Shown piece by piece: positions 52,762-56,769 of a DNA stretch of 64,000 bases. The stretch is taken from contig NC_087245.1 in assembly GCF_037042905.1 (NCBI RefSeq), forward strand, positions 22,632,001 through 22,696,000, in the 5' to 3' direction. The translations under genes were made by a program, and so were the position numbers. Position 1 is the stretch's first letter, and every line of letters starts with the position of its first letter. The DNA comes from Lytechinus pictus (taxonomy: Eukaryota). The notes beneath the pieces are model-generated. The model did not search any database. It saw only the letters and a list, made by a program, of their open reading frames with translations, and was not told the origin of the DNA.

Positions 52762-54481
52762 AGAAGACTTCAAAACATCGCATGCGGGATGTACCGGGTC
52801 TGGTCCGAGCTCGGACCCTCGCGCGCATGCGATGTTCTGAAATCGGCAGCGAATTATTACGTGTGAGGAACTTCATGTTGGCTCTAAATCATCAATTTTG
52901 AGACTGATAGAAGCATGGAAAAGAAATGAAACTTTGTGTAAAGTAAGAATATTAGTTGTACTTGTTTTTAAAGATCGTGATGTTGCATTAATTTTGTATT
53001 TTCTCCCCATAAAATCCCACCTTTTGTCACTCGGAATATCCGATCGAGTTCATGGTCTCGAAGTTCGGGTAGGTGAAGCGTAGTGTAGCGGTAGTGAAGT
53101 GGAGTGGAGCCTGCACGAACTTCGCTCGAGGTAACATAACCCACACCTGCACAGATTGATTTCAAATTTAAACGTACCATTTCTACTCTTAATATTCATA
53201 CATAGAGCCAACATATTTCCAAGTTATCAATACATATAATTATTGAAACCTTAAATACAATGATAATTATATATTTTGTACTTACAACATTGGGCTCATC
53301 AAAAATCAGAGTGAAATTAACTTATTCAAATTTCGTGCAACATCATCATGTCCGAAAAATAGGGCTCCCTCTCGAGTCAACTACAATTTCCAAAGAAAAA
53401 ATGTATCTCTTAGAACTGTCGACATAAACAAATTATGACAAATTTTGGCCTCTTTTTGCCAAGCAAAATAAATATATATTCCAGCAATTTACAGAGGGGG
53501 GGGGGGGGGGGGGGGAGAAAGAACATGCAAAAGATAAGGAAAACATATTTATCTCACTTATCAAAAGTCGAGCGCGCAGCGCGAGGTAAAAAAAATATAT
53601 TCAGATCTGAAATTTGCCATTCATGAAGAGCAAATGTATCTCATCATTTTTACATTCAGACTTAAAATGGGGACATGATTATTTAAGCACTTTTTGTAAT
53701 CATGAAAACATGCGTTTGTCGCTGATGAAATTATGAAAGCTCGAAGCGGGAGGAAAACATTTTAAACAACATGTAAACCCCTTGGACGGGGATTATGTAC
53801 TACTGCATAGAACAATCTGCGTGCGCCGGGAAGAGTGAACACATAGCCCCTAAGCAAATTACGTTTCATCAAATTTTGAAAGAAATCGCTTTTCCCATTG
53901 ATTCTCTTTCTTTCTCCCTCTTTCTCTCCTTCCCCATTTTTGTGCCAGCCAATGGGGGGGGGGGGGGGGAGTGCCCCTGTGTCCCCCGTAGCTACGCCAC
54001 TGAACGACATAAGTACGTGGGGGTCGAAGGTTCCCAATCGGCTGGCAAAAAGGGAAAAGGAAGAGAAAAATTGAAAAAAATGGGGAATGATGTAAACAGT
54101 AATAGAAATCATTTTTTATATATTAAAAATAGTCGATCAGACGCAATGATCATCAAAATTCATTTTGAATAAATTAACAAATAAATTTGCTTGGCAATCC
54201 TGGACCCGTTTCATGTCACCACTTCTTGAATAAATTGTGACATCTTTTCACGAATTCATCTTTTCCTCACTGGAGGAGATCAACCTGATCAAATATTTAT
54301 GCCAGTGCACGTTCGACCATGCCATATCGTTTTTTTTTATAATAATTTATTTGAAATGCAGTGCTCTCACATATTAAATGTCATCATTTGGTTCGACTAT
54401 GAATATTATGACATGCAAAATGACCTCGAAATTTTGAAATCACAAACTCCTAAAACTTGAAATTGGAATTGCAATAGGAGC

Positions 54482-56276
54482 GTGTGTGTGTATTTGAGTT
54501 TTGTCAGACGTGTATCAATCAGATATGATTATTTACGTCTGGGACCGACCTTTAACGTCACCATCCGAAAGACGTGACCAGGGGCGGTATTCTGAAAACG
54601 TTCTTATCTTAATTTTGTTCTTATCTACGTCACGTTCTCAAATTGGTATTCTGAAAACGTTCTTATCTTTTTCTTATCTTTTGTTCTTATCTTTTTCTTA
54701 TCTTGCTTTCCATCGATGCTGAGCGCGTAAATTTATAATTCGCGCATATGATACAAAAGCGCGCTAAAAGATAAGAACAAAATAAAGATAAGTGGTATTC
54801 TGAAAACGTTCTTATCTTTTTTCTTTCTTATCTCTTTTCGATATTTATGATAATATTTAAGATAGCTAGAGGGTTATCACATCTTACGCTGTCCGTCTTC
54901 TTTCTTGCTAAAAATCGATGGCCACTGGTAGTAACAAGTATTCCTCCCAACCTTTCTTTCATTCACCCTTTATTTTGCCTGTCTCTTTTTTCTATCCCTT
55001 TTTTCTTTCTTTCTTTTTTTCTTTATTTCTTTCTTTCGTCCTTCCTTTCGTTCTGTCTTTCTTTATTTCATTTAGGCCTATTTCTTTTCGCTTTTTCTTT
55101 TCTATCTGTTTGTCTTTTTTCATTTCTTTCATTCTTCATTTTGTTTTGTTCTTTTGAATCTTTTAACTTCTTCCTTATTTTTCTTTTGCGTTATTTTACT
55201 TATTCTTTCTTTTTCATTTTTTAAATTGAATTTATTTCCGTTAAAAACAAATAACAATACATATAAAATTATACATGTGAATTGATAAATGAAAAACGGG
55301 AGGATGGCCCTGCTCAGCAACATCAATCATGGTGCTGCTGGTCTACCGAGGGGTCCTTCCTTTTTTATTTTTCCTTTCCGATTTTTTTCCTTTTTTTCTT
55401 TCACCTTTTCTCTCTTTCTTTCTGTTTTTTTTCCTTTCTTCCTTCACTTTATTTATTTTTGTAATCTTTTTATTTCTTCATTTTTTAGGGTAAATTATAC
55501 TTTATTTTCTTCTTTATTCTTTCCATTAATCTTTCTTCATTTTTTCCTGCCTTTTTATTTTTCCTTTCTTTTTCCTTCCTTCTTTGAATTTACCTTTCTT
55601 TTTATCTTTATTTAGTTTTCAATTTTGCTTTACTTTTCCTTTCATCTTTTATCTTCCCTCTCTTATCTTTTTCTTTCTCTCCCTCTCTTTCTTTATTTGT
55701 TTTCTGCATTGATCCTTTTATTTTTTAATTTCTGCTTCATTCTGACCCTTTTCTGTCTTCTTACTTACCTACTTACTTTACTTCTTTCTACCTGTTTTAT
55801 TCTTATTCGTAACTGCTTTCTTTACCTTTTTTCCTTACTTTCTTTCTTTCTTTATTTTGTGCACGTGTCTCGAAATAATAATCAGTCATTGCGTATAAAA
55901 TGCCTATTTCGCGCAATGCGCAAGAAACAGTGCACGCGCAGCGCCCATGATATTCTCTTACATAAGGAACGCTTTTATTGGTTAAACTGCCAATATAAAG
56001 CGCATTTTGATTGGTAATATCTTAAAAATGGGCGTGTTGAAGATAAAAAGGAGGCAGTCCTTACAAAGATAAGAACGCGTTAAGAAGATTTTCAGAATAC
56101 CGATTTGCAATGATTTTAGCGTCTTCTTATCTCATTGAGATAAGAACAAAGATAAGAACAAAGATAAGAACGTTTTCAGAATACCACCCCAGGGCTCGAA
56201 CCTCTGCATCAATTTGTAACTTCCCCACAGCTTGGATTACAGGCGCACGCCACAACGCCTAGTTGTGGCGTGCGCC
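54482..56276 (-). mobile_element. Candidate 7SL-RNA-derived SINE (about 170 nt), split by a Harbinger MITE
   Basis: 12-bp TSD TGCAATAGGAGC (54470-54481, 56277-56288). Minus-strand head AGGCGTTGTGGCGTGCGCCTGTAATCCAAGCT, B box GGTTCGAGCCC and (CA)n tail. Confidence 0.75.
54582..56189. mobile_element. PIF/Harbinger-type MITE (1.6 kb)
   Basis: CAG|GGGCGGTATTCTGAAAACGTTCTTATC ... GATAAGAACGTTTTCAGAATACCACCC|CAG (CWG TSD); pyrimidine-rich interior. Confidence 0.88.
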
Positions 56277-56769
56277 TGCAATAGGAGCCTAAATTAGTTC
56301 CATATTTTATACACCGAATCTATCAAAATTAATAGTTAGTAAATCTATTTATCAGTTGGAAATGGTAAAATTAATGAAGTGAGGAGCACTCGTATTACAC
56401 GTGAATGTAGATGTAATACCAAACGTCATAGACAAAAAAGTATGTGTACCTTCGGTATAATCAAGAAGATCTCATTTGAAACCTCCTTGGTATATATTGT
56501 TTTTCCCTGCTTTCCAAAATAATACGAAGAGCGCCCTCGATGATGAGATGATGAAGAGCGAACAGTATTCAGCTTATAAGAGATTTCCTTCCGGTATATG
56601 ATTCGTATTCAATATGAATCTTTCGATATGAACAGGGAAGTGGGAGGTTCCCTGATCTGAGAAAGCCCTGTCGGGTTCTGTTCCATTTATTATCTCATAA
56701 TAAGAATATCCGGCTCAATTACACAAATTAACAGTACGCAAGAGCATCAGAACGATTATTATTACCATC

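Follow-up and report, generated by a model that had tools for sequence, protein, structure and literature searches.

Here, we describe a real, multi-copy element that is very probably a short interspersed element (SINE) with a 7SL RNA head and of independent origin in a sea urchin. One copy lies, split by a DNA transposon, at positions 54470-56288 of a 64,000-nt stretch of Lytechinus pictus DNA (assembly GCF_037042905.1, contig NC_087245.1, positions 22,632,001 to 22,696,000, forward strand; the whole stretch is called the window below). An initial annotation, made from the letters of the window, had proposed a chimeric 7SL-headed SINE hidden by the insertion of a Harbinger element. We also lean, if only slightly, towards a more specific reading: that this is the first 7SL-headed SINE of an invertebrate and the fourth independent origin of such elements, in which a minimal 45-nt SRP9/14-binding domain was swapped onto a tRNA-type SINE and spread, without poly(A), by a long interspersed element (LINE) recognizing a stem-loop. 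The layout of the split element is as follows.

54470-54481, no strand: target-site duplication (TSD) of the SINE, tail-side (3′) copy, identical to 56277-56288
54482-54491, minus strand: (CA)5 tail at the SINE's 3′ end; other copies, in reads and in contigs, depart from the reference at 54482-54483 into unlike flanks
54492-54541, minus strand: 3′ region with a predicted stem-loop at 54505-54541 (fold -13.0 kcal/mol) and a putative role in LINE recognition
54542-54578, minus strand: 5′ segment of the Deu/Nin central domain (Inv/alpha-like), 23/28 first columns identical to AmnSINE1 Deu
54579-54581, no strand: CAG target duplication of the DNA transposon, left copy
54582-56189, no strand: 1,608-bp non-autonomous DNA transposon resembling a miniature inverted-repeat transposable element (MITE), of the PHIS/Harbinger superfamily with a NuwaI-type CWG duplication, placed by its terminal inverted repeats (TIRs) and TSD
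56190-56192, no strand: CAG target duplication, right copy, made of the final base of the B box and two more
56192-56202, minus strand: tRNA-type RNA polymerase III (Pol III) B box GGTTCGAGCCC, element positions 62-72
56203-56218, minus strand: 16-nt linker between 7SL domain and B box, 3/16 identical to its equivalents in the related loci L001 and L002
56219-56263, minus strand: 7SL RNA 5′ Alu domain, model positions 1-44, an Rfam RF00017 match, likely source of the A box and of a putative SRP9/14 site
56264-56276, plus strand: inverted partial copy of the head between element and TSD, likely a cDNA snap-back product of this insertion
56277-56288, no strand: TSD of the SINE, head-side (5′) copy, identical to 54470-54481

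Read on the minus strand between the two TSD copies, the head (56263-56190) is followed by the insert (56189-54582) and then by the body with its (CA)5 tail (54578-54482), the DNA transposon having cut the element directly 3′ of the B box. All pieces lie where the initial annotation had placed them, the Pol III B box included, and the perfect 12-bp direct repeat that it reported was confirmed; at the spacing of that repeat, ±10, not one of the 8,858 12-mers sampled from the window recurs. The transposon-free reconstruction of 170 nt holds and occurs in real reads and contigs as a joint from 54577 to 56189, but the start is probably 56263, 3 nt further upstream, so that the element without the insert and one CAG measures 171 nt. 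This size (<1 kb), together with unlike flanks at the tail, corresponds to the interspersed, non-tandem dispersal of SINEs, and the 12-bp TSD seen here accompanies a simple-repeat tail whose (CA)n end is common to other copies. Searches with blastn and nhmmer detected no second copy of head or body elsewhere in the window.

The head was assigned to 7SL RNA by the Rfam model Metazoa_SRP (RF00017), positions 1-44 of 299 of which match 56219-56263 on the minus strand with 29.2 bits and an E-value of 2.7e-6 for a 181-base query, or approximately 1e-3 when scaled by arithmetic to 64 kb. An Rfam scan of the window at the gathering threshold returned 0 matches, the head lying below the gathering score of 70 because the match is a fragment. 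No tRNA family was present among the 10 Rfam matches of the head query up to E 10, and the possibility that the head is closer to a tRNA than to 7SL, raised by the initial annotation, is thus decided in favor of 7SL; miRNA-like matches (E 0.15-7) were set aside, as they arise from hairpin or Alu-derived models. Twelve of the 14 model base pairs are retained, and one of the two lost pairs is also non-standard in the model consensus. Four loop-loop pairs are possible (12-15 with 33-36, including a G-U), and a UGUAR motif, which we take to be the SRP9/14 site, is in place. The 3-bp closing stem consists entirely of Watson-Crick pairs despite the fact that two of the three deviate from the consensus on both sides, suggesting that 56263 is the true 5′ end. 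Beyond model position 44 no 7SL match was found, nor was there any Rfam match for 56177-56226. Therefore, the 7SL/Alu head of the initial annotation stands as a 7SL match without a tRNA match, but only the 5′ Alu domain is present and not an Alu-type, internally deleted 7SL. SINE1 elements are defined by a 5′ part derived from 7SL RNA (Kojima 2020, PMC7245038), and this copy has such a 5′ part (RF00017 1-44, no tRNA match).

The extent of the retained piece resembles that of the minimal Alu domain constructs SA46/AY46, whose 5′ domain of 46 nt is bound by SRP9/14 and permits retrotransposition in HeLa cells (PMC11760393). These constructs are engineered and depend on a cytomegalovirus promoter, poly(A) and L1 in HeLa cells, whereas the urchin element is natural, ends in a stem-loop tail and has a putative SRP9/14-binding activity. 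By analogy, the head would be the very unit shown to be sufficient for Alu mobility, and SRP9/14 binding is predicted.

The multi-copy nature of the family was examined in sequencing runs. From 24 listed runs of two organisms, four were aligned to 54350-56226: contigs of two DNA runs of organism B (X5 and X7), contigs of a run of organism A (X1) and a raw RNA run (X22). Contigs that depart from the reference at 54482, in the tail, numbered 33 (X1), 107 (X5) and 122 (X7), with a flank agreement of 0.40-0.43. Counted at one coordinate, there were thus 107 and 122 departures in the DNA runs of organism B, in which alleles may count twice, and 33 + 11 in organism A. Since more than 100 contigs in each DNA run pass from the (CA)n tail into flanks that are unlike one another, an interspersed family exists in two organisms, and the concern of the initial annotation that the element might be a single copy is refuted. 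The transposon-free joint from 54577 to 56189 was present in all four aligned runs, in 148 of 2,431 aligned reads of X22 and in 4/575 (X1), 14/4,837 (X5) and 13/4,770 (X7) contigs. The summed depth was 1.22 million over the body versus 91-95 over the flank in X5, 0.84 million versus 1-8 in X7 and 1,791 versus 0-3 in X22, and this copy's own 3′ flank was almost uncovered. The ratio of approximately 10^4 was rejected as a copy number because summed depths are not copy numbers. One organism B contig (X5) spans the left flank 54350-54475, from which it is listed as differing once; whether the SINE is present or absent may therefore be testable at the orthologous site.

On the head side, 687 X22 reads overrun the ends of the reference while the depth at its left end is 0, which means that they extend past 56226, by which point 8 nt of the 7SL-like stretch have been covered. 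Contigs overrunning the ends (up to 43, 312 and 279) do so essentially all at the head side, again into the 7SL-like stretch, and among the rows listed, the only loose end on that side within 56195-56226 is adapter. A second form of the family carries a 7-nt tandem duplication of the B-box core (a joint from 54583 to 56195 with 7 letters between) and was found in both organisms, in 736 X22 reads and in 5, 14 and 12 contigs of X1, X5 and X7. In X22 this form (56195-56202) outnumbers the plain form, 736 versus 148 reads, perhaps owing to one dominant transcript.

With regard to transcription, 93-95% of the X22 first mates lie on the plus strand, which corresponds to element-sense RNA if the library is of the usual stranded type. 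A B box is present and the RNA reads are one-stranded, although the polymerase cannot be told from these reads. The index of runs records no RNA holder, which says nothing about expression. In addition, 685 reads at 54483 share one 3′ flank with an agreement of 0.83, indicating one family locus far more expressed than the rest; this locus is a candidate source gene, or else a host transcript carrying a copy. A further 39 X22 RNA fragments, below the threshold for a pile of ends, end in adapter at 56218-56219, exactly at the 3′ foot of the 7SL closing stem, which could reflect a reverse-transcriptase stop at the folded domain, a cut site or duplicates.

The origin of the remainder of the element is illuminated by relatives with other heads. 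When a body motif of 22 nt was used for pattern scans, it turned up at two loci of marine metagenomes, L001 and L002, at 0 loci in viral contigs and at 0 in prokaryote genomes. Body and tail are identical to the element at 91 of 97 aligned bases in L001 and at 83 of 85 in L002, the latter with an additional 9-nt duplication. Their heads show no similarity to the 7SL-like head above shuffles and instead carry A- and B-box motifs. All three sequences have a gap of exactly 2 nt between the end of the B box and the body, and the final 13 nt before the body agree with the urchin element at 9/13 (L001) and 6/13 (L002) positions. The linker is common to other copies of the urchin family, yet only 3/16 identical to those of L001 and L002. 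The same body and tail behind tRNA-type heads, with the B box in the same register, indicate a head swap, giving direct support to the chimeric origin put forward in the initial annotation. On the simplest reading of these alignments, B box, core, hairpin and tail would form one module from a tRNA-headed SINE, the front of which was replaced by 7SL 1-45. In L001, an element of approximately 360 bp with terminal inverted repeats of approximately 19 bp (86-445) precedes or interrupts the tRNA-type head. In L002 (264-372), the related SINE ends in (ACCA)n and not in (CA)n, and its 9-nt duplication lies within the hairpin loop.

The central part of the element, aligned by eye, is identical to the Deu domain of AmnSINE1 in 23/28 first columns (Kojima 2020, supplementary Fig. 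S4, PMC7245038). Of the ~130-nt Deu domain, the element contains no more than the first ~30 nt and lacks the other ~90 nt; therefore, the Deu/Nin central domain named in the initial annotation is retained as the 5′ end of Deu, but not as a full Deu (~130-330 nt) or Nin (70-120 nt) domain. Set against its description, the core fits the Inv/alpha type, which has only the 5′-end portion of Nin (PMC5804259). Downstream of the core, the predicted stem-loop at 54505-54541 comprises a 7-bp outer and a 6-bp inner stem (-13.0 kcal/mol), and the same structure is predicted in L001 and L002. By its predicted fold, it is likely a LINE-recognition signal. A 13-nt stem-loop motif did not occur in the supplements of PMC4824008 and PMC4758252 (all but one file of each), and a full-text literature search for the body motif yielded 0 papers.

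Until now, 7SL SINEs are known only from supraprimates, hagfish and shrew mole, all of them vertebrates and all with a central deletion (PMC13023118, February 2026), and those described all keep the 3′ 7SL strand (PMC7245038, PMC13023118). The list in the initial annotation (primates, rodents, tree shrews and hagfish, none in echinoderms) should be extended by Urop of the shrew mole, published in 2026; its statement on echinoderms stands within the literature searched. Alu, B1 and Tu (Euarchontoglires) and Urop (shrew mole) share with the urchin element a 5′ end from 7SL with the 5′ Alu domain, and tree-shrew Tu includes units of dual 7SL/tRNA origin; however, they have a central deletion of ~183 nt, keep the 3′ 7SL strand and depend on poly(A) and L1, none of which holds here (PMC13023118). 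The Alu-type design, with 5′ and 3′ 7SL segments across a central deletion, is absent from the urchin element, since there is no match past model position 44. The closest parallel is the hagfish family SINE1-1_EBu (Ebu1-1, Eptatretus burgeri; PMC7245038), a 7SL head on the 3′ part of an older tRNA-headed SINE, which is also alike in its microsatellite tail instead of poly(A), TSDs, a non-L1 partner (predicted for the urchin element) and independent origin. Ebu1-1 keeps both 7SL ends (7SL 1-96 and the 3′ terminus, that is, the whole Alu domain, with 7SL supplying both boxes) and ends in a bipartite RTE tail with (AAC)n, whereas the urchin element has 7SL 1-44 only, a tRNA-type B box, the 5′ segment of Deu, a stem-loop with (CA)n tail and an invertebrate host.

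The 5′ end of Deu is shared with the Deu/Nin/Inv SINEs (AmnSINE1, SINE3, EbuSINE1, BflSINE1 and SINE2-3_SP; PMC5804259, PMC4824008, PMC4758252), in which head replacement is also known in the form of a 5S rRNA fused onto a tRNA head (PMC4758252); the urchin element differs in keeping ~30 nt of Deu and in taking its head from 7SL rather than from tRNA or 5S. The sea-urchin Deu SINE SINE2-3_SP is listed as tRNA-headed (PMC3747384) and is set apart here by its description, not by its sequence. No echinoderm 7SL SINE was found in the literature searched, Repbase, Dfam and the supplements of SINEBase and PMC3747384 (which contain or may contain SINE consensus sequences from sea urchins) lying outside the search. 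We class the element as a variant of the 7SL-headed SINE, and neither as an Alu-type nor as a Deu family member.

In the mechanism that we propose, the 7SL 5′ domain would have displaced the front part of a SINE with a tRNA head, leaving its B box, Deu-like core, stem-loop and (CA)n tail in place, and Pol III would transcribe intact copies from a hybrid promoter with the A box from 7SL and the B box from the tRNA SINE. By analogy with the minimal Alu domain, the 5′ domain may fold in the same manner, bind SRP9/14 and place the RNA at ribosomes, where the reverse transcriptase of a stem-loop-recognizing LINE would bind the 3′ hairpin and (CA)n tail; target-primed reverse transcription would then insert the RNA. 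In the copy described here, the end of the cDNA would have folded back, copied ~15 nt and joined the target by microhomology, with a 12-bp TSD. Later, a NuwaI-type DNA transposon would have landed at the CAG beside the B box, after which Pol III transcripts would terminate ~215 nt in, at a T run, and this copy would no longer be able to move.

Several observations weigh against this account of a mobile, 7SL-headed family. The folding energy of the head is not better than that of mononucleotide shuffles (z -0.27), and the 7SL donor is deduced from the Rfam model and not from the 7SL gene of the host. SINEBase asks for at least 60% identity to tRNA, 5S or 7SL over at least 60 nt, or for demonstrated Pol III transcription (PMC3531059), and the 7SL match of 44-45 nt is shorter than that, the B-box piece adding a separate ~13 nt. 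No other copy showed the outermost 37 nt at the 5′ end of the head, the alignments having covered 54350-56226, so the presence of the head across the family is deduced from read-through to 56226. Of 1,303 X22 reads in the four largest rows of loose ends at the tail, 685 share one flank, and the strand bias may therefore owe much to one transcript, possibly of RNA polymerase II. Neither ARAGORN nor Rfam calls a tRNA in L001 or L002, whose heads are typed by box motifs only, and both loci are single copies from marine metagenomes. No partner LINE sharing the 3′ end was found within the window, and no empty site was seen for the SINE insertion.

The main rival explanation, which we consider possible but rather doubtful, accepts the family and regards the 7SL piece as a promoter part only, supplying A box and start site, with SRP9/14 binding irrelevant to its spread. 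A stem-loop tail implies a stringent LINE whose template is selected for its structure and for which docking at ribosomes may not be needed; moreover, the tRNA-headed relatives use the same tail, the fold of the head is not thermodynamically special, and the 3′ 7SL strand of all described 7SL SINEs (PMC7245038, PMC13023118) is missing. However, the retained piece stops where the closing stem of the 5′ domain does, and this domain was found to be sufficient for SRP9/14 binding (PMC11760393), and its pairs, loop-loop complementarity and UGUAR motif have been retained, whereas an A box alone needs only ~15 nt. Since the tRNA-headed relatives have this same body and tail, different heads can be compared in function while the body is held constant, which makes promoter versus SRP9/14 docking directly testable, and in a lab-bred model animal. 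If the docking interpretation is true, the family would provide natural evidence that SINEs benefit from SRP9/14-mediated ribosome docking irrespective of the LINE they partner with and that they can do without the 3′ Alu strand. A family in an urchin would extend the three vertebrate lineages of 7SL SINEs (PMC13023118) to invertebrates and break their both-strand design.

It is rather unlikely that Repbase, Dfam or a repeat library of Lytechinus already lists the family, be it as SINE1 or with a tRNA/Deu label. An element abundant in two organisms with many public runs would be caught by automated libraries, and the sea-urchin Deu SINE SINE2-3_SP, known here by description only, does exist; on the other hand, 7SL SINEs are restricted to supraprimates, hagfish and shrew mole in PMC13023118, SINE2-3_SP is listed as tRNA-headed (PMC3747384), and on this point, which the initial annotation had raised, the literature searched (Repbase and Dfam being outside it) contained no such family.

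It is very improbable that a 7SL fragment was joined by template switching onto a 5′-truncated tRNA-headed SINE at this site only, all other copies being tRNA-headed. Such a one-off chimera would suit the irregular 5′ junction of this copy with its inverted segment, extra-template junctions of this kind being made by R2 (PMC11371274), as well as the missing view of the outer 37 nt. Yet 687 RNA reads continue into the 7SL-like stretch, as do up to 43, 312 and 279 contigs, the sole loose end listed at the head side within 56195-56226 is adapter, and the linker, unlike that of the tRNA-headed relatives (3/16), is common to copies. Human Alu contamination, misassembly or a chance match is a negligible explanation, for although the head resembles Alu/7SL, the match stops at position 44, the rest is an invertebrate SINE module, the TSD lies in urchin DNA around the element, and the joined form occurs in 4/4 runs.

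What this copy contributes to the family is a naturally occurring 5′ junction of snap-back-like form and a nesting that can be dated. At the 5′ junction, the head-side TSD copy does not adjoin the head, as 13 nt of inverted head copy intervene. Perfect 17-bp hairpin arms at 56240-56256 and 56262-56278, separated by a 5-nt loop, form the sole such hairpin in the window, and the inverted arm extends into the TSD with one mismatch (21 nt, 95%). The inverted segment is likely a product of cDNA snap-back before 5′ joining. Snap-back synthesis, often after full-length cDNA, is seen at the 5′ junctions of R2 target-primed reverse transcription (PMC11371274).

The nested insert at 54582-56189 has TIRs that are alike at 18 of their 19 first bases, CAG on both sides, 8 + 4 subterminal 8-mer repeats and a CT-rich interior. 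Its only two open reading frames (ORFs) are of low complexity (108-125 aa), neither being a real ORF, and the insert is multi-copy in all four aligned runs. A 3-bp CWG duplication marks the NuwaI group of the PHIS superfamily, whereas strict PIF/Harbinger elements make TWA (PMC4482050). The insert resembles the NuwaI group (PMC4482050) in its TIRs and 3-bp CWG duplication and differs in being non-coding, and since it is non-coding, its placement follows from TSD and TIRs only. With TIRs, a CWG TSD, no transposase and multiple copies, it has the characteristics of a non-autonomous PHIS/NuwaI element. The Harbinger MITE of the initial annotation is therefore kept at the level of the PHIS (Harbinger) superfamily, but refined to the NuwaI group by the CWG duplication. 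The order of nesting is SINE first and DNA transposon second, and it is datable. The insert leaves the B box whole and places a T run (56049) ~215 nt downstream of the element's start, so that this copy would give a tail-less transcript and be immobile. A second, partial copy of the transposon (right end only) lies at 52211-52761, with 83% identity overall and 92% near the end, without the last ~5 bases.

Other features of the window include the first coding exon of a cholinesterase 1-like gene at 60860-61237 on the plus strand, whose identity to the Lytechinus pictus gene is 99%, as against 83% for L. variegatus and 68% for S. purpuratus; the host is therefore likely L. pictus, in agreement with the echinoderm assumed in the initial annotation. 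At 56704-57654, also on the plus strand, an intronless ORF of 306 aa carries an Agglutinin_C/Lectin_C_term domain; its 59 matches come from metagenome, protist-transcriptome and bacterial sources, the best at 60%, with no named animal protein among them, and a horizontal transfer is possible. A Penelope-like element with weak reverse transcriptase and GIY-YIG matches, split over two frames, occupies 11206-13304 on the plus strand, and a broken BEL/Pao long terminal repeat retrotransposon occupies 29782-34942 on the minus strand.

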